Source: Lachnospiraceae bacterium UBA2864
Lineage (GTDB): Bacteria > Bacillota > Clostridia > Lachnospirales > Lachnospiraceae
NCBI GenBank assembly: GCA_002350525.1
Contig: DEFA01000013.1
Location: forward strand, 9,995 to 73,994
Direction of reading: 5' to 3'
DNA length: 64,000 nt
The notes below the pieces were generated by a model, which worked only from the letters and a program-made list of their open reading frames with translations, searched no databases and was not told the origin of the DNA. Shown here piece by piece: positions 3,037-64,000 of this stretch (the stretch's first letter is position 1; every line of letters starts with the position of its first letter). The position numbers and the translations under genes were made by a program.

Positions 3037-5715
3037 CTAACTGTTTGCCAGTTCCTTCGCATATTCTATAGCTTCCCGTACTTTCGGTATGAGAAGTATA
3101 AGTATCGTGATTATAGCTTCGATTCCGATATAACCGAGGCAGTACTGGATACTGTACCATACGGTTTCATTATAGAAGTAAGAGCAGTTGATAACTCCTT
3201 CTATATAGCGGAGACCTACAGCAACCAGATAACCTATCCAGAAGCCGTCGATATGACCGCCGGGCTTCTTCTTCATATGTGACCAGAATCCTCCGATTCC
3301 GACTACTCCGTAACCAAGCAGATAATCGTATATTTCGGCAACTATATGGTTATGATCCAGAATATTAAACTGGTAATCGATTCCGAACTTGAAGAAGCTG
3401 TATACTATAGCGGCTGCAATTCCTACTCTTCCTCCGAAGAAGTAAGCTATGAGGAACAGGATTACCGTACTGAGGCATGTTACCTCACCACCTTCAACCA
3501 TGTGCAGCGGACGGAGATAAGAAAGTCCCAATGCTATAAGGAAGAGTATGAGGGTGACCTCAAGTTTCCTGAGTGTAAAGCCTTCTTTCCGCTTATGACT
3601 ATCTGCTTCGTTATTCCATGGCTGCCTGAACTTAAGTCCTGACTGCCGCTTCTTTCTGGCAAGAAGGGCAAGAGCTATAACGAAGAGTCCGCCTCCGCCG
3701 ATGATGGTAACATCAAAGGTGCTGGTAGCTTCTTCCATAGGCATTCCCAGATATTCATACAGCATACCGAGGATTCTGACGGCAAAGTCCTGAATCTGGA
3801 TAACGGCAAGGATCGTAGCAAAGATATTGATGATCATGCCGTTACGTTCTTCGGCTCTGGCACTCTTTACATCAACCATGTGCTCGAGGAATTCCTGCTG
3901 CTCATTATACTGATCTCGAAGATCCTCGTTATCGAAGGCGTCTTTGATCTGCTCTGCTTCAAGTTGGGTTCCGTAATATTTAAAGTTATTGCTGTTCCAG
4001 AACTTTATGGTTTTCGCATAATCACGATAAAGCCCGTCTATATATTCATAAGATACATCGCCTTCATGAGAGAGCGCGGTGGATACATTGTTATTCAGTT
4101 TATTGAGAGTCGTGTTCTGGAAGAGCACAAGCTCCACTATGAAGACGTAAGTTGCGGCAAGTTCCATCCTTTCCGAAAGGTTTTCATTAAAATCTTTCAG
4201 AATGAAGGCAACCATCTTCTCACTCATGTAGGTCTCATAGTAGTCATATACCGAGCGGTTGTTTGTAGCCATGTCTATAAGTGCCTGATTCCTTATGAAG
4301 AAGTCCTGATGGACACTCTGATAGGTTTCACAGGCAAGTATATTCAGGAATTCCTGACTAACATTATCAGGCAGTTCTTCCGGACGGTTAACAGCCATAC
4401 AGTCTTTAGGCATACCTGATGAACAGAGGAGTGCTTTTCCGTCTCCGCACTGATACAGGCCGTAATGCTCACGGAGATAATCATTTAGATTTATATAATT
4501 AGGATATCCTCGGTCATCCATATCCTGCCAGTTGTCATCCGATTCAGGTCTGATCTTCAGATAGCCCTGGAAAAGCTGATCCTCAATCTGGGACGGTGAG
4601 TAGCGGCAGTTAGGTATGCAGAGCATAACTACATACATGTTGGTCGCGTGATGTGCAAGGAGTGATACATGAGCTATCTCCTCACCTCTTATATAAGGGA
4701 GTTCCTCGTCTTCCGGATATTCGTCCATGGAATGAAGGAAGCGGAAGCTGCCGATGTATACACGCTTTAATTCATTTACAATCTTACTCTTATATTCATA
4801 TCTGAGACAGTCATCCAGAGATTCGAGGAGAGGCTCGATTTCGTGCGGTACATTTTCACCTGATGTAGCCTCTTTATCTGACAAGAGTTCATCCATCTTA
4901 AGGTTGTCGGGTGAATCTTCATACGGAAGGAAGAGATATACATCGTCCTTGGTGGTCTTTCTATAAAGTCTGTCGGGATTCTTCAGGAGATATTCAAGAT
5001 ATATTCCGTCAGTCACGTAGACAATCTCAACGCTGTCCTCCTTTTCAAGCTGAAGCCTGTCGGGAGTTATCCTGAAAGGGTGCGGAACAACAAATCTTCT
5101 TATTCCGAGCATACGGTCACGGAGGAACTTTTCGCCATCAGCAGTTACCGCATACGCGGAAATGCTGTTAATACCGTAACCTTCCGATTCAAGAACATTC
5201 AGATAATTTACAAATTCCGTGGTGAGCTGGGTTACAGTATCACGGCCTCTATAATCTTCATCTATAACAACGGATATGATGAAAAGGTTATTGTGCTTAA
5301 CGATTTCGCCATCTTCCTCGGTATTCTTCAGATATTCCGGCAGAATTTCATTAGGACCCAGATCATCATCCCATATAATCTCGTGGCCTTCCTCACCGAT
5401 CACGGGATTGCCATCATCATCTTTACGCGGACCTTCAACTATATCATCATAGACTTTATCGGTAATTGGGAAGAAATTGATATAACCTACCAGGTTATCC
5501 TGTTCATCCATAAGGCACACAAAGGTGCGCTTATTATGATTAAAGCGCGCTTCCATGTTCTCTATGGTACCGACAAAATCCTCACCGGCTTTCTCACCGA
5601 TCGGTCCGTATACTTTTTTATCGAGGGCGATTACCTTATCAAGGTAACTGCGATTCATATCCTCGCCCTTTAATACTCTAAAAGCCACTCTATGTCCTCC
5701 GTAAACAGTCCACAT
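3037..5715 (-). CDS. multidomain membrane protein: N-terminal GNAT-like acetyltransferase, large unknown central region, C-terminal polytopic ECF-S-component/ThiT-like membrane domain
   Basis: 892-aa ORF. N-terminus has a GNAT-like pattern (LVGYINFFPI.., IISVVIDEDYRGRD). Two TM helices near aa 620-680, then about 5-6 TM helices (GGRVGIAAAIVYSFFKFG.., GFWIGYLVAVGLRY) resembling energy-coupling-factor S components. Start is uncertain; the alternative ATG at 5658 (MNRSYLDK) has an adjacent GAGGA. Confidence 0.6.
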   Translation of the reverse strand: MWTVYGGHRVAFRVLKGEDMNRSYLDKVIALDKKVYGPIGEKAGEDFVGTIENMEARFNHNKRTFVCLMDEQDNLVGYINFFPITDKVYDDIVEGPRKDDDGNPVIGEEGHEIIWDDDLGPNEILPEYLKNTEEDGEIVKHNNLFIISVVIDEDYRGRDTVTQLTTEFVNYLNVLESEGYGINSISAYAVTADGEKFLRDRMLGIRRFVVPHPFRITPDRLQLEKEDSVEIVYVTDGIYLEYLLKNPDRLYRKTTKDDVYLFLPYEDSPDNLKMDELLSDKEATSGENVPHEIEPLLESLDDCLRYEYKSKIVNELKRVYIGSFRFLHSMDEYPEDEELPYIRGEEIAHVSLLAHHATNMYVVMLCIPNCRYSPSQIEDQLFQGYLKIRPESDDNWQDMDDRGYPNYINLNDYLREHYGLYQCGDGKALLCSSGMPKDCMAVNRPEELPDNVSQEFLNILACETYQSVHQDFFIRNQALIDMATNNRSVYDYYETYMSEKMVAFILKDFNENLSERMELAATYVFIVELVLFQNTTLNKLNNNVSTALSHEGDVSYEYIDGLYRDYAKTIKFWNSNNFKYYGTQLEAEQIKDAFDNEDLRDQYNEQQEFLEHMVDVKSARAEERNGMIINIFATILAVIQIQDFAVRILGMLYEYLGMPMEEATSTFDVTIIGGGGLFVIALALLARKKRQSGLKFRQPWNNEADSHKRKEGFTLRKLEVTLILFLIALGLSYLRPLHMVEGGEVTCLSTVILFLIAYFFGGRVGIAAAIVYSFFKFGIDYQFNILDHNHIVAEIYDYLLGYGVVGIGGFWSHMKKKPGGHIDGFWIGYLVAVGLRYIEGVINCSYFYNETVWYSIQYCLGYIGIEAIITILILLIPKVREAIEYAKELANS

Positions 5716-7606: not shown

Positions 7607-9142
7607 TTAAGAATATATGATCAGCATGATGATCACGCATAGAGATACATACATAAAAGTTGATGACGTAATCTTATAGAAAGCCGTAAGCTTCTTTTTT
7701 ATAAAGAGCATAAACCACACTGCAAGTATCATGGCATCTATGATAAAGAGCATGATGCAGTTAAGCCCATAGTCCTTGCATATTATGGCATACCATATAG
7801 AGAAGGCCATAACTAGTGGGGCTCCCACAAGGAAATTTCCGTTTCCAATGGCATCTATCTTATCAGCCATTGGAGAATTGGAGGAAAACCACAGAAAGGA
7901 ATATGCGGATATGATCATTATACAAAAAGAAGTATCCAGATTACCGATGGCACCACTATATATATCCTTCCTGTAAACGAATATAGAGAAGGATAATACT
8001 GCAGCAGTGGATATGCTGAAGATCAGATATATTACATTCAGCATGGCATGAAATCTTGTAAGAATATAATTAGTCTTACATCTTGCCGGGCTGAATCTGG
8101 TCTGCTGGGTATAATTGAAATACAAAACAGCAAGTGTGGAGGCTGTTATAATGCAAATAAGCGGTACGACATTGCTTTTTTGGTCAAGGCTGGATACAAA
8201 ACCAGGCAGTCTCTGCACATAGAAAATGAGTGATACAACTGTCATGGCACCGGTCAGATTGCATATCGTCGAAAAAACAACATTGAGGAAAGAAATATCA
8301 AATCTTCCTTCGTAGTACATAGCAACGTTAAGAAGCTCATCAGAAGAAGGCCATTTTCCGGCCTTTTTTTTATGCATGATCATTGCTATGGGAAGGTCAA
8401 GACAGAGTCCGGCTGCTATAGGAAGCAGTGACAGTCCTAAAAAGAGTATTAAATGTGTTCTGAGGGGGAGTTCTGCAATTCTTTTTACCATGGATGTCAG
8501 TGTGACTCCTTTTGTCTGAAGAGCAAAGAGGAGCATAACTATTCCATAGAGAAAGATGAAGAGCATAAACCAGTTTTTCTGAAAATATGAGAATTGGATA
8601 TTCTTCATCCGAAGGTCTTCAGTTTCATTGGATTCTTCACCCTCTTCTGAAACAGGAGTGATGGCTTGGATATCTTCTGCAGTTTCAATGGTACTGATCT
8701 CTTCAGATATATAGTCGATATCTGAGCCGACAAAGCAATATCCCATTATACCGCTGATTTTTCTCTTGTCGATTATCTGTTTATAAAGATTTTCGCATGT
8801 TTCCTTATCAAAATTGTTCATAAGAAGCTTTATAAAAGAACCTTTGATAGAGGAAATGCTTTTGGACATATCTATAGAATTATATTCTTCTATCTGATTA
8901 AGCTGGTTTCCGGTTATATAATCGCCCTTATGGTCGATTAAATATCGGAGAACCTGAAGCTTTCGATATTCAATCTTGCTTTTGTATCCCAAGAATTCGA
9001 TTTCCTGATATGTAAAGTCAATTGAAAGACCTTTGAGATCACCACTGGTCCATATGAGTTTATTATTCTCAGGATTAATATTTTTTTCATTATCATTAGC
9101 TGTTGATTTCAATTTATAATTCCTCTGAAATGGATAAAACAA
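7607..9142 (-). CDS. membrane-bound one-component regulator: N-terminal OmpR/ToxR-type winged-helix domain plus polytopic membrane domain
   Basis: N-terminus YQEIEFLGYKSKIEYRKLQVLRYLIDHKGDYITGNQL resembles a trans_reg_C winged helix, followed by about 10 hydrophobic helices. No in-frame ATG near the 5' end. Candidate TTG starts are at 9142 or 9112; the latter has AGAGGA 8 nt upstream. Confidence 0.55.
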   Translation of the reverse strand: MFYPFQRNYKLKSTANDNEKNINPENNKLIWTSGDLKGLSIDFTYQEIEFLGYKSKIEYRKLQVLRYLIDHKGDYITGNQLNQIEEYNSIDMSKSISSIKGSFIKLLMNNFDKETCENLYKQIIDKRKISGIMGYCFVGSDIDYISEEISTIETAEDIQAITPVSEEGEESNETEDLRMKNIQFSYFQKNWFMLFIFLYGIVMLLFALQTKGVTLTSMVKRIAELPLRTHLILFLGLSLLPIAAGLCLDLPIAMIMHKKKAGKWPSSDELLNVAMYYEGRFDISFLNVVFSTICNLTGAMTVVSLIFYVQRLPGFVSSLDQKSNVVPLICIITASTLAVLYFNYTQQTRFSPARCKTNYILTRFHAMLNVIYLIFSISTAAVLSFSIFVYRKDIYSGAIGNLDTSFCIMIISAYSFLWFSSNSPMADKIDAIGNGNFLVGAPLVMAFSIWYAIICKDYGLNCIMLFIIDAMILAVWFMLFIKKKLTAFYKITSSTFMYVSLCVIIMLIIYS

Positions 9143-25839: not shown

Positions 25840-25857
25840 ATGACGTTTCAAATATGA

Positions 25858-25945
25858 TTCATCCCTACGTTGGCATTATCCAAATCAGGTTAACGGGTCG
25901 AAGGTCGAACCTTCCTCTCAGCCGATTTATCGGCTCCCCTCTTTA
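25858..25945 (-). promoter_or_regulatory. TPP (THI-box) riboswitch aptamer
   Basis: Minus strand reads ..GGGGAGCcgataaatcgGCTGAGAgg...cgttAACCTGATttGGATAATGCCaacgtAGGGA. This matches the conserved THI-box cores (GGGG.GC, CTGAGA, ACCTGAT.TGGATAATGCCA, AGGGA). Confidence 0.92.
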
Positions 25946-26150
25946 ATTGCGGCTCTAATTGTAGTCTTTTATTCGGAGTTAGTCAATGGGGAAATACCAT
26001 GGACTCTATTTTCTATTATCGCGACAAAACATCAACTGTTCACGACATTTTCTATGTAATCTGTATTTTCTATGGTAATATATACGATGAAAAGAGCAAC
26101 CGCTCTGGAACAGTTTATCTACAATTGGAAAAGAAACGGAGGATTTGAAA

Positions 26151-60554: not shown

Positions 60555-60680
60555 AGCCTGCCACCGGAGTGTTATATGCATTCCGGTGGCAAATCTATGT
60601 TTAACGCTGGATAATAGGGTTATTAGATGATAGAATAAGATTTGGCTTTGTCAAAAATTTCAGTTTATAAGAGGTTTATT

Positions 60681-62186
60681 ATGAACGAAAAGATAACAGT
60701 TAATGCGGATAACCGCATAGCATTTAATAATAACGTGGATTTCTGCGTAGGAACAGGACGTCTCGGTCTCGCGCTTACGGAGGAATACTTAAAGCAGCTT
60801 GAGTTCGTTCAGAACGAGATCGGATTCAAGTATATCAGAGGCCATGGCCTTTTTACGGATGATGTCGCAATCTATCATGAGTATGAAGAAGAGGGCGAGA
60901 TTAAAGTTGAATATAACTATACCTATCTGGACAGGATATTCGACAGATTTATAGAACTGAACATCCGTCCGTATCTGGAACTTGGATTCATGCCTTATCA
61001 GCTGGCTCGAGGCACTCAGACAATTTTCTATTGGAAGGGAAATACAACTCCGCCGAAGGATTACCGCATGTGGACAGACATGGTCGTGGCACTCCTGAAG
61101 CATCTCAGAAGCCGTTACGGTGAAGAAGTTTTGGAATGGCCTATCGAAGTCTGGAATGAGCCGAATCTTCCGGGATTCTGGTACAATGCGGATATGGATG
61201 AGTATTTTAAGCTTTTCAAGGAAAGCTATCTTGCAATCAAGGCATATGACAGCAGATTCAAGGTGGGCGGTCCTGCCATATGCGGTGTAAATGACGCCGA
61301 GTGGATCAGAGAGTTCCTTAAATTCTGTAAAGAAAACGGTCTTCAGCCGGATATGATAACAAGACACCATTATACGGTGGAATTCCCGAAGAATATCGGA
61401 CATTATGATTATCACAAGCTCGAAGATGCGGAAATGAGATTCGATAATCTTCAGTCATCCCGTGATATTGCCGATTCTATCGAAGAGTTTAAGAATACGC
61501 CTATACATATAACGGAATTCAGTACATCATATACTCCTAAGGGAGTTATTCATGATACAAATATAAATGCCGCATATCTTGCGGAACAGCTTTCGCGTAT
61601 CGGTGATATGAATGAAGCTTATTCGTACTGGACATTCGGTGATGTTTTTGAAGAGCAGGGAGTTCCGTATTCACTGTTCCACGGAGGATTCGGAATGGTT
61701 GCTGCCGGAAATATTCCAAAGCCGACCTTCTGGACATTTTCATTCTATAAGCAGCTGAAGAACGCAGGAAGCGAATGTGTATTCCGTGACAAGACTTCGG
61801 TAATAGTAAAAACTGCGAAGGGGTATGCCGGAATACTCTGGAACATCGATTCGGACGAATATACAAGAGATATAGAACTTCCGGTATCGGAATATGACAG
61901 CGCTGATTTTACTCTTATTACAAAGACTGTAGATGAGGAATGCTGCAATCCGCTTAAAGTATGGCATGATATGGGAGAGCCTGCACAGCCTGTAAAGGCA
62001 GAGACAGAGCTTATAAGGGCTTCGGCATTTCCACTTATAAGGAGTGCTGTGGTTGAGCCTAAGGCAGGAAATGCTGATATTAAGATATCCGTTAAGAAGA
62101 ACGGTGTGGTATATTTTGAATTATCTGAGAGAACTTTTACTCCGGATCGCGGTTACGACTACGACAGGGTAATCTCGGATCACTGA
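60681..62186 (+). CDS. glycoside hydrolase family 39 (beta-xylosidase-like)
   Basis: Acid/base motif WPIEVWNEPNL and nucleophile region HITEFSTSY. About 500 aa, typical of GH39 XynB. Confidence 0.85.
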   Translation: MNEKITVNADNRIAFNNNVDFCVGTGRLGLALTEEYLKQLEFVQNEIGFKYIRGHGLFTDDVAIYHEYEEEGEIKVEYNYTYLDRIFDRFIELNIRPYLELGFMPYQLARGTQTIFYWKGNTTPPKDYRMWTDMVVALLKHLRSRYGEEVLEWPIEVWNEPNLPGFWYNADMDEYFKLFKESYLAIKAYDSRFKVGGPAICGVNDAEWIREFLKFCKENGLQPDMITRHHYTVEFPKNIGHYDYHKLEDAEMRFDNLQSSRDIADSIEEFKNTPIHITEFSTSYTPKGVIHDTNINAAYLAEQLSRIGDMNEAYSYWTFGDVFEEQGVPYSLFHGGFGMVAAGNIPKPTFWTFSFYKQLKNAGSECVFRDKTSVIVKTAKGYAGILWNIDSDEYTRDIELPVSEYDSADFTLITKTVDEECCNPLKVWHDMGEPAQPVKAETELIRASAFPLIRSAVVEPKAGNADIKISVKKNGVVYFELSERTFTPDRGYDYDRVISDH

Positions 62187-62196
62187 TAACAGGATA

Positions 62197-62231
62197 TTTA
62201 GGGGCGTTTTCAACGTCCCTAAAAATTTTTC
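62197..62231 (+). terminator. rho-independent terminator
   Basis: tttaggggcg / cgtccctaaa stem (one G-U pair), followed by aaattttt. Confidence 0.65.
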
Positions 62232-62242
62232 CTAAAAACCTA

Positions 62243-62271
62243 TTGACATAGTAGGTAAATAGTGTTATTAT
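62243..62271 (+). promoter_or_regulatory. sigma-A type promoter (extended -10)
   Basis: TTGACA (62243-62248), 17-nt spacer, TGt-TATTAT (-10 at 62266-62271). Confidence 0.75.
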
Positions 62272-62310
62272 CCTACCTGTCAAGAGGGAAAAAGAAAGGA
62301 GAGTTTCAAA

Positions 62311-62427
62311 ATGAACAAGTTACTCACTTCTGAAAAATTTGAAATGATGTGTTGTCGAATGCTGAACTCCCGGGCATGTAATATGGCTGTAGGGTCTGCT
62401 TCACGTCGATGTTGCACCCTTATGTAG
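62311..62427 (+). CDS. 38-codon Met/Cys-rich leader ORF (candidate regulatory leader peptide)
   Basis: AAAGGAGAG RBS lies 8 nt upstream of the ATG. Encodes MNKLLTSEKFEMMCCRMLNSRACNMAVGSASRRCCTLM*, with 6 Met and 5 Cys. Below the ORF-track length cut-off. Confidence 0.55.
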   Translation: MNKLLTSEKFEMMCCRMLNSRACNMAVGSASRRCCTLM

Positions 62428-62464
62428 TTCTAGAGATCGTTTATAGATCATATGCCATATGTCC

Positions 62465-62497
62465 GGGAGCTTACACAGAAATGAGCTTCCATTTTTT
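62465..62497 (+). terminator. leader (attenuator) terminator
   Basis: gggagctta / tgagcttcc 9-bp stem (two G-U pairs), followed by attttttg. 38 nt after the leader ORF stop and 210 nt before the downstream gene. Confidence 0.7.
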
Positions 62498-62707
62498 GTG
62501 CGTTAAATGAGGAAAAATCCCATATGCGAAGCATATGCGGTGATTAATACAAATGCTCGCACATTTATGTGCAAGAGCATTATGGAGTAATCACAGAATA
62601 TCTGCAGAATGCAGATATGGGATTTTGACGAATTCGCATCATCGAGCATTGCGAGATGTCAAAGAATCATGAGGGATTTAAAATTATCGGAAAGAAGGAA
62701 AAATAAA

Positions 62708-64000
62708 ATGAGAAAGTTTATAAATAATGAGATAAATTCAGAAAAGCAAAAGAAGAAGGGTGGCCTTCTCAGAAAGATCGGAGCACTTACACTTGCGCTT
62801 ACCGCAAGTATCGGACTTCTTACAGGATGCGGTAATGACGGAAAGGTTGAAGCTTCAACCATAAAGGATGAAACAAAGACAGAAGCAAAGGCAGTTTACA
62901 GAACAGTAGACGAGATTAAAGAAGCAGGTGAGATCAATATCGGTGTCTTCTCCGACAAGTCCCCATTCGGATATGTAGATGAGAACGGCGATTATCAGGG
63001 ATATGATGTTTACTTCGCGGAAAGAATAGGAAAGGATCTCGGAGTAAAGATCAACTATGTATCAACCGAGGCTGCAAGCCGTGTAGAGTATCTGGAGACT
63101 GGAAAGGTTGATATAATCCTTGCAAACTTCACAGTAACAGATGAAAGAGCAGAGAAAGTTGATTTTGCACTTCCATATATGAACGTAGCACTCGGCGTTG
63201 TATCACATGATGATAACGTAATCACAGATTTAAGCCAGGTAGGAGCTGATGATCAGGTGATCGTTATATCAGGAACAACAGCTGAAACATATCTTACAGA
63301 GAATAACCCGGAGATCAAGCTTCAGAAGTTCGATACATATGCAGCTGCAAAGAGCGCATTTGAGAACGGTACAGGAGTTGCCTGGGCAAACGATAATACG
63401 GAAGTTATAGCATTTGCAATTGAGAATAAGGGCTATACGGTAGGAATTGAGACTCTCGGAAGTCTTGATACGATAGCACCTGCAGTATCAAAGGGTAATG
63501 AGACACTTCTTAACTGGATCAATGATGAGATAAAGACACTCGGAAGCGAGAACTTCTTCCATGCGGATTATGAAGCAACACTTATAGATACTTACGGTGC
63601 GGATTATGAAGATACACTTGTTGTAGAAGGCGGAGTTACCTCATCAGGTGAGAAAGAATCTTCAGACGACAAGGCAGCAGATGAAAAGACAGATGATACT
63701 CCTGTAGAAGCTAAGGGAACAATCAAGATAGCAGCTTCACCAACACCTCATGCAGAGATTCTTGAGAAGGCAGGAGAGTTACTTAAAGATCAGGGATGGA
63801 CACTTGAAGTTACCGAATTCGAAGATTATGTACAGCCAAACCTTGTAGTAGAAAGCGGAGAGCTTGATGCAAACTACTTCCAGCATGTACCTTATCTTGA
63901 TAATTTCAACGAAGAGAACGGAACCTCACTTGTAAATGCAGGCGGTATCCACTATGAGCCATTCGGAATCTATCCGGGAACAAAGGCTTCGCTTGATGAA
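62708..64000 (+). CDS. fused substrate-binding lipoprotein: family-3 polar amino acid (cystine-type) SBP domain + MetQ/NlpA methionine-binding domain, 3' end off-window
   Basis: Lipobox SIGLLTGCGNDG. SBP_bac_3-like region (INIGVFSDKSPFGYVDENGDYQGYDVYFAERIGKDLG.., DIILANFTVTDERAEKVDFALPY). Acidic linker. Then a MetQ-like region (IKIAASPTPHAEILE.., VTEFEDYVQPNLVVESGELDANYFQHVPYL). The frame stays open to the window edge. Confidence 0.8.
   Translation, partial: MRKFINNEINSEKQKKKGGLLRKIGALTLALTASIGLLTGCGNDGKVEASTIKDETKTEAKAVYRTVDEIKEAGEINIGVFSDKSPFGYVDENGDYQGYDVYFAERIGKDLGVKINYVSTEAASRVEYLETGKVDIILANFTVTDERAEKVDFALPYMNVALGVVSHDDNVITDLSQVGADDQVIVISGTTAETYLTENNPEIKLQKFDTYAAAKSAFENGTGVAWANDNTEVIAFAIENKGYTVGIETLGSLDTIAPAVSKGNETLLNWINDEIKTLGSENFFHADYEATLIDTYGADYEDTLVVEGGVTSSGEKESSDDKAADEKTDDTPVEAKGTIKIAASPTPHAEILEKAGELLKDQGWTLEVTEFEDYVQPNLVVESGELDANYFQHVPYLDNFNEENGTSLVNAGGIHYEPFGIYPGTKASLDE

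Follow-up and report, generated by a model that had tools for sequence, protein, structure and literature searches.

The window analysed here is a stretch of 64,000 nucleotides (nt) of contig DEFA01000013.1 from Lachnospiraceae bacterium UBA2864. Near its 3' end a short open reading frame (ORF) rich in codons for methionine (Met) and cysteine (Cys) lies between a promoter and an intrinsic terminator, ahead of a gene for a fused binding protein (Table 1). An original prediction had listed the promoter, the ribosome binding site, the ORF with its 6 Met and 5 Cys and the terminator, and all of these are present in the window sequence. It had considered this leader a candidate attenuator responding to both Met and Cys, with a small Cys-rich peptide gene as the alternative. 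Our evidence is comparative and in silico throughout; anatomy, conservation, covariation and gene association are its observed part.

Table 1. Features of the leader and its surroundings (positions in the window).
Feature	Position	Strand	Remarks
Upstream neighbour, GH39 glycosidase	60642-62186		own terminator 62197-62223
Sigma-70-type promoter	62243-62271	+	TTGACA 62243-62248, 17-nt spacer, TG-extended TATTAT 62266-62271; 11/12 consensus positions
Shine-Dalgarno sequence of leader ORF, AAAGGAGAG	62295-62303	+	7 nt before ATG at 62311
Leader ORF, 38 codons + stop	62311-62427	+	peptide MNKLLTSEKFEMMCCRMLNSRACNMAVGSASRRCCTLM; 6 Met, 5 Cys
Regulatory run ATG ATG TGT TGT	62344-62355	+	Met12 Met13 Cys14 Cys15; proposed ribosome stalling site
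Hexamer CGAATG	62356-62361	+	Arg16 Met17; sets the 11-nt spacing from run to segment A; invariant in 39/39 aligned leaders
Segment A, CTCCCGGGCAT	62367-62377	+	within ORF; antiterminator 5' strand; pairs with 62459-62469 in minimum-energy fold; covariation
Inner antiterminator helix, 5' strand ATGGC	62383-62387	+	helix 2 pairing across alignment
Inner antiterminator helix, 3' strand GCCAT	62454-62458	+	helix 2 pairing across alignment
Segment B, ATGTCCGGGAG	62459-62469	+	antiterminator 3' strand overlapping terminator 5' arm; folding, covariation
Intrinsic terminator	62465-62497	+	stem-loop 62465-62490 (-12.1 kcal/mol), T6 62492-62497
Terminator-to-gene spacer	62498-62707	+	210 nt; outside conserved attenuator
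Predicted regulated gene	62708-64000	+	ATG 62708, runs off window; SBP_bac_3 + NlpA/MetQ lipoprotein

The leader forms a transcription unit by itself, as the glycosidase gene upstream has a terminator of its own. The leader transcript probably starts near 62278. The promoter architecture is kept upstream of most leaders of family A. Terminator-like sites are more frequent than expected (5 in 1.1 kb compared to 0.8), and promoter-like sites are no more numerous than chance predicts (3 compared to 3.6). Runs of four or more Met/Cys residues containing both amino acids occur only three times in the six-frame translation of the entire 64-kb window.

The downstream protein had been described as a fusion of a cystine-type and a MetQ-type binding protein, and both domains were detected, SBP_bac_3 (polar-amino-acid binding) as well as NlpA/MetQ. 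Among solved structures, its C-terminal half matches MetQ, and the N-terminal half best matches the chains 2yjp and 1xt8, which we take to be cyst(e)ine receptors from Neisseria and Campylobacter, although their PDB names do not state this. The corresponding protein of the closest relative (L001) is 92% identical, comprises 577 amino acids and is followed by an ATP-binding cassette (ABC) ATPase and two permeases. Judged by this arrangement, the fused binding-protein gene is the predicted first gene of an ABC transporter operon.

To what extent the small ORF is kept was evaluated by searching for relatives of the binding protein with one genome per species. This led to 80 loci, all from Lachnospiraceae-like rumen or gut bacteria (81 with the window). 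In 61 of the 81 loci the orthologous fused binding-protein gene is preceded by a same-strand small ORF with a Met/Cys run, and several of the loci without such an ORF have sequence ending just upstream of the binding-protein gene. All but one of the 61 leaders exhibit an in-frame ATG preceded by AAGGAG or GGAGG, and the run mostly starts 7-12 codons past this ATG, with few outliers. The leader peptides are 27-47 amino acids long (median 38) with medians of 5 internal Met and 5 Cys. Met and Cys together make up 26% of their residues; for nine genes neighbouring the leader in the window this share is 5.5%. The window peptide has 11 Met or Cys among its 38 residues, including the run M-M-C-C. The densest stretch of 8 codons holds a median of 6 Met/Cys codons per leader (range 4-8), and both Cys codons are used (TGT 208, TGC 108).

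The run itself varies in length among the leaders, in multiples of 3 nt. Interruptions are rare and single (Asn, Gly, Trp, Ser, Ala or Thr); otherwise the frame holds only Met/Cys codons, and all subfamilies show an alternation of Met and Cys within the run. Neither the N-terminal nor the C-terminal end of the peptide is conserved in sequence. Conserved residues are confined to the run, R-M and S-R/Q-A, and the subfamilies (MCMCCCRML.SRA, TTCMCMMMCGCMLQDSR, VNTMCMCMMCCP, MNMCMCMMCCC, MCMCMCTMS) have only the run in common. Variable termini combined with a run that is kept as codons and changes by 3-nt insertions or deletions are what one would expect of a codon-counting leader and not of a functional peptide. 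Seen over the 61 loci, the small ORF is thus kept as a Met/Cys-rich ORF, and the exact peptide is not kept.

The leader is not restricted to the fused binding protein. A profile of the peptide retrieves 57 small proteins, unnamed or hypothetical, from a collection of 5.8 billion proteins and, in a set of 1.84 billion representatives, at least 188 clusters (50% identity), mostly of 35-45 amino acids. The genomic context was inspected for seven database peptides; in each case a sulfur-amino-acid gene or operon follows on the same strand after 100-230 nt. One leader (L081) precedes an O-acetylhomoserine/O-acetylserine sulfhydrylase (TIGR01326) followed by cysK (TIGR01139), both above the cut-off. 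Two more (L088, L091) stand before a member of the same sulfhydrylase family, which in another case (L082/83) comes second after an unnamed ORF of 201 amino acids. The remaining ones precede MetQ (L084, L090) or an operon of permease, ATPase and fused binding protein (L086/87). Within the 80 loci the leader is likewise found before a sulfhydrylase (L031) or permease genes (L080). The cultured Lachnospiraceae bacterium XBB2008, the source of L081, carries two leaders 3.4 kb apart (at 5001-5138 and about 8450-8600), one before the O-acetylhomoserine sulfhydrylase and cysK, the other before a fused binding protein. These varied targets among sulfur genes indicate that the match between enriched amino acids and regulated functions is general and no coincidence of the window.

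We aligned the main subfamily of 39 leaders (alignment A1). The order of elements is run, invariant CGAATG, five variable bases, segment A (CUCCCGGGCA), stop codon, GCCAU-UUGCCCGGGAG with segment B, a short loop, CCCGGGC and the T-run. Segment A (62367-62376) pairs with UGCCCGGGAG (62460-62469), and an inner helix AUGGC:GCCAU extends the pairing. An antiterminator had been proposed from a complementarity between the ORF and the terminator. Of the two segments named, ctcccgg is located at 62367-62373 as claimed, and ccgggag at 62463-62469, one base off the 62464-62470 given; the pairing itself is confirmed, is longer than proposed and shows compensatory changes. Standard base pairs are found in 91.7% of the cells and compensatory changes in 11 of 16 pairs, which is matched by none of 500 shuffles. 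Sliding the partner strand by 1-3 columns reduces pairing to 24-46%. The inner helix (helix 2) is paired in 86% of the cells with a compensatory change in 3 of 5 pairs. RNAalifold independently yields the same helix of A and B with 10 base pairs (bp), 7 of them compensated.

Examples of compensation are CGAGCA with UGCUCG in L001, CCCAGG (Ser-Gln-Ala) with CCUGGG in nine leaders, UACCCAGGCC with GCCUGGGUA in L076 and CAGGUG with CACCUG in L079. Since these changes break the CCCGGG palindrome, the covariation signal does not merely reflect three copies of a palindrome.

When the 39 leaders are folded one by one, each forms a hairpin on segment B (-8 to -20 kcal/mol) with a T-run behind it. We relied on this folding for the terminator because register shifts of the 3' arm spoiled the test on the alignment. 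The proposed overlap of both structures holds throughout: in every aligned leader the 5' arm of the terminator is the 3' strand of the antiterminator. As segment B serves both, antiterminator and terminator are mutually exclusive. The sequence varies between A and B, where no aptamer-like conserved core is seen. ORF, run and terminator are also retained in the other leader subfamilies.

The distance from the end of the run to segment A is exactly 11 nt in 39/39 leaders. We modelled the ribosome by masking -15 to +12 around the codon in its A site and folded each of the 39 leaders. When the last Cys codon of the run occupies the A site, the antiterminator is the best structure in 36 leaders and the terminator in 3. 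One codon further (Arg, CGA) the numbers are 27 and 11. They are reversed as soon as the Met after CGA is reached (0 and 37), and with the A site further into the ORF the terminator is best in all 39 leaders, the antiterminator in none. The window leader behaves like the alignment. According to these results, the run occupies the last positions where a waiting ribosome leaves segment A free.

Taken together, conserved ORF, covarying antiterminator, terminator and gene association support the proposed dual Met and Cys leader-peptide attenuator. We consider it highly probable that the element is a ribosome-mediated transcription attenuator reporting the supply of charged tRNA-Met and tRNA-Cys. 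Here we infer translation of the leader ORF, stalling, the response to the amino acids and the relative timing of ribosome and polymerase. Transcription would begin at the promoter (62243-62271), followed by translation of the leader ORF with its 38 codons. Segment A (62367-62377) and segment B (62459-69) could then form a long antiterminator hairpin. If Met or Cys is scarce, the ribosome would wait on the Met-Met-Cys-Cys codons at 62344-55. Its footprint would stop just short of A, such that A pairs with B once B is made, no terminator forms and RNA polymerase enters the transporter operon. If both amino acids are plentiful, the ribosome would translate across A and the 5' half of the antiterminator, leaving B free for the 3' arm of the terminator, and transcription would end at the T-run. 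A stall at either kind of codon would be enough, so that the leader would work as an OR gate with Met and Cys as inputs.

Several observations weigh against this mechanism. In the same model the antiterminator is also favoured without any ribosome (31 leaders, terminator 8) and with the ribosome at the stop codon (22 and 17). Pure thermodynamics therefore fails to explain how A stays unpaired after the ribosome has passed, and kinetics or a further element is needed. Candidates for keeping A from re-pairing are the timing of ribosome and polymerase, a ribosome inside the hairpin, or a hairpin resembling the 1:2 hairpin of trp. Regarding the latter, CAUUYG, which can pair with CGAAUG, occurs 18 or 24 nt past A in 20 of the 39 leaders and is absent from the window's own clade. 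A trp-like 1:2 hairpin (CGAAUG:CAUUYG) enclosing segment A is a candidate element, whose CGAAUG strand never varies. This pairing explains the hexamer only in part. Its Arg is CGA in 39/39 leaders with no synonym, a codon used for 5 of 171 Arg in neighbouring genes, and the hexamer recurs in second small ORFs (see below) and directly before the run in subfamily E. Moreover, covariation of the terminator at the level of the alignment comprises a 4-bp core with one compensatory pair, a test weakened by the shifts of the 3' arm. In subfamilies B to F the same masking model, with terminators present, gave no clear antiterminator switch. Finally, Met limitation would also lower initiation, which complicates the sensing of Met.

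The last point touches the alternative that survives best, which we nevertheless regard as unlikely: a sensor for one amino acid, most plausibly Cys, with the Met codons present for another reason, be it to avoid a homopolymeric UGU tract or for RNA pairing. Leaders with Cys runs are a known precedent (PMC1262725; bioRxiv 10.1101/834739; PMC8632094), and the literature searched yielded none with Met codons. Starvation for Met affects initiation as well, and a stall at the conserved Met after CGA would favour termination in the footprint model. However, internal Met is as enriched as Cys (median 5 each) and alternates with it within the run in every subfamily. Leaders also precede genes for MetQ only (L084, L090) and, in other cases, homocysteine synthase, and the regulated binding protein carries a MetQ domain. 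These findings fit a sensor for a single amino acid poorly.

Considerably less probable is a switch under the control of a TRAP-like protein or a small molecule that binds the UG-rich triplets and/or CGAAUG and thereby chooses between A:B and B:C, the ORF being incidental. The tract of AUG and UGU triplets could act as a repeated binding motif, but its length shifts solely by multiples of 3 nt, its Cys codons vary synonymously and its frame holds Met/Cys codons bar the rare single interruptions. An in-frame Shine-Dalgarno sequence and ATG at similar distance in 60 of 61 leaders likewise speak against an incidental ORF. A bound partner would fit the nucleotide-invariant CGAATG with its rare Arg codon, and also the sequestration of segment A in the replete state, which the footprint model leaves unexplained; the variable region between A and B, however, lacks an aptamer-like core and no Rfam family matches.

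The small Cys-rich peptide gene named as the alternative, i.e. a stand-alone gene for a functional peptide (metal-binding, redox or the precursor of a ribosomally synthesized and post-translationally modified peptide), is hardly credible despite its own promoter, Shine-Dalgarno sequence and terminator, an occasional annotation as hypothetical protein by gene callers and, in the window clade, a second Cys-Cys near the C-terminus: the termini are not conserved, Arg16 is always CGA, the neighbourhood is devoid of modifying enzymes and peptide exporters, the ORF is always directly upstream of sulfur-amino-acid genes on the same strand, Pfam and NCBIfam give no family match for 37 leader peptides, and the S-R/Q-A residues covary with non-coding nucleotides past the stop codon, so that the constraint acts on the RNA. 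Conserved residues outside the run are thus explained by RNA pairing and the invariant hexamer and not by selection on a peptide.

The proposed dual attenuator resembles the classical leaders of Proteobacteria, trpL, hisL, leuL and pheL along with the multivalent thrL and ilvL. In these, too, an intrinsic terminator competes with an antiterminator and the position of the ribosome chooses the structure; in thrL and ilvL a single leader senses more than one amino acid. In contrast, the amino acids here are Met and Cys, for which the literature searched gave no such leader in Firmicutes, the host belongs to the Lachnospiraceae and there is no sequence similarity. The geometry differs as well. The 5' strand of the antiterminator is located within the ORF, 11 nt past the run, and the 3' strand 80-100 nt away beyond the stop codon, which places the 3' half of the ORF within the antiterminator hairpin. 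Moreover, a pause or anti-antiterminator hairpin of the 1:2 type is not clearly present.

Firmicutes usually control Met and Cys genes by the S-box (SAM-I) riboswitch, by Met or Cys T-boxes, or by the regulators CymR and MtaR. These systems act on the same gene classes (MetNIQ-type transporters, sulfhydrylases, cysK), and S-box and T-box share the terminator/antiterminator output. The sensor here, however, would be a ribosome translating Met/Cys codons and not an aptamer or a tRNA-binding leader. At the gathering score Rfam detects nothing in the leader in a scan of the whole window. A permissive scan of 62150-62760 (E-value up to 10) gave nothing above noise (E-values from about 0.9 upwards), and the covariance models found 0 matches in 20 related loci. 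An S-box or T-box leader was rejected on these grounds, and the original prediction stands in this regard.

Leader peptides are not without precedent in Firmicutes, as a His leader peptide upstream of hisS/hisZ paralogs replaces the T-box in bacilli (PMC2965389). It concerns another amino acid, other taxa and other genes, and shows no sequence relation. Leaders with Cys codons have been predicted in Actinobacteria (PMC1262725). In mycobacteria, polycysteine leaderless small ORFs (Ms5788A and relatives) were tested: low charged tRNA-Cys causes ribosome stalling, which controls sulfur and cysteine genes (bioRxiv 10.1101/834739). Common to both and to the window is a small upstream ORF with consecutive Cys codons before sulfur genes. 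The mycobacterial ORFs, however, have a tract of Cys only at the 3' end, act translationally by freeing the Shine-Dalgarno sequence of the next gene and lack an intrinsic terminator (10.1101/834739). The window leader exhibits a strong Shine-Dalgarno sequence, a mixed Met/Cys run in the middle of the ORF, a terminator with T-run and 210 nt from terminator to gene. A leaderless translational attenuator of the mycobacterial type was therefore rejected in view of the Shine-Dalgarno sequence, the mixed run and the terminator, with the Shine-Dalgarno sequence of the next gene 210 nt away.

Another predicted ribosome-mediated attenuator, uORFC-8-2, precedes cysS in Rhodobacterales and combines tandem Cys codons with an intrinsic terminator (PMC8632094). 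It differs by two Cys codons and no Met, by a tRNA synthetase gene in Alphaproteobacteria as target and by a two-stem architecture with the Cys codons in the first stem. No similarity of the window leader to uORFC-8-2 was detected, as judged by the lack of an Rfam match in the leader. A Met-codon leader, a mixed Met/Cys leader or this Lachnospiraceae element is not described in the full-text literature searched, which mostly does not cover subscription journals. Most likely the element follows the principle of classical leader-peptide attenuation; the Met and combined Met/Cys input, the host and the geometry are new as far as this literature shows.

A wider picture is plausible, although we propose it only tentatively and on comparative grounds. 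Rumen and gut Lachnospiraceae may employ Met/Cys leaders, in place of the S-box, T-box or CymR of other Firmicutes, to run a sulfur regulon (fused cyst(e)ine/methionine transporter, MetQ, homocysteine synthase, cysK). The Met codons would be true sensors, and the antiterminator would be the ground state, so that genes are 'on by default' and terminated only via a translating ribosome. Some lineages would add a second small ORF with CGAAUG, ending in Arg-Arg-Cys-Cys, as a further and possibly translational stage. If the Met codons are true sensors, this would be the first Met-sensing ribosomal attenuator, and Met as well as joint Met/Cys input would join the amino acids sensed by leader-peptide attenuation. 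If 'on by default' is true, the loss of initiation under Met starvation would induce the operon, too. If the attenuator is confirmed, abundant Clostridia of gut and rumen would apply a 'proteobacterial' logic to sulfur metabolism, in contrast to the S-box and T-box RNAs of the textbook Firmicute.

For annotation, the signature consists of a Shine-Dalgarno sequence and ATG, usually 7-12 codons, the Met/Cys run, CGAAUG and CUCCCGGGCA. It is usable to find sulfur-amino-acid genes in metagenomes, including the unusual fused binding protein. At least 188 peptide clusters are now unnamed or hypothetical. The geometry, with an ORF running into the antiterminator hairpin and a long distance to the terminator, represents a test case for attenuation where ribosomes may trail RNA polymerase. 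XBB2008 (GCA_900102235.1) with two leaders in one 10-kb stretch is a convenient strain for experiments; YSB2008 is another cultured carrier.

In several loci of subfamilies B, C and D (L005, L006, L007, L008, L009, L012, L025, L038, L044, L045, L058) the first terminator is followed by a second Shine-Dalgarno sequence and small ORF, about 100-250 nt before the start of the binding protein. The peptide reads ..RM(P/C)....RRCC, and the RNA has a small hairpin framed by CGAATG ... CGATGTTG. In L005 this ORF ends about 25 nt before the start codon of the binding protein. The second small ORF may represent a second, translational stage. About 130 nt upstream of the binding-protein start, L014 (Butyrivibrio sp. 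NC2002) exhibits a short ORF MNKVMCCHMSISRK... and a UCCCGGA/UCCGGG hairpin with no terminator. The ORF runs in frame into the start of the binding protein and looks like a degenerate or remodelled leader.

The promoter region contains palindromes. An imperfect one, CCTATTGACATAGTAGG, spans the -35 box in the window (62239-62255, and 62272-62282). CCTAYTGACAtArTAGG is kept in about 30 of 44 promoters of family A and is also present in L019, a locus without leader. In L081 a gene of the Rrf2 family adjoins the leader. The promoter palindrome CCTAYTGACATARTAGG is a candidate operator, and a protein regulator may act besides the attenuator. Loci without leader were checked for a substitute riboswitch; none was found, and they exhibit two different palindromes in the promoter region instead. 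Five of them (L037, L042, L053, L021, L028) share a different palindrome, TTATCACTAACGATAA, about 90-150 nt upstream of the binding-protein start, which may represent an alternative, protein-based control.

The spacer between terminator and gene (62498-62707) contains a strongly structured block of several hairpins at about 62514-62627 (z-score -5.0). It folds as a three-hairpin junction closed by AAUCCCAUAU/AUAUGGGAUU. By BLAST against the window and all loci the spacer is matched only in L001; it represents no repeat among these sequences and has no Rfam match. The sole Rfam family above threshold in the window is a thiamine pyrophosphate (TPP) riboswitch (RF00059) on the minus strand at 25845-25950, with 62.6 bits compared to a gathering score of 54.3.

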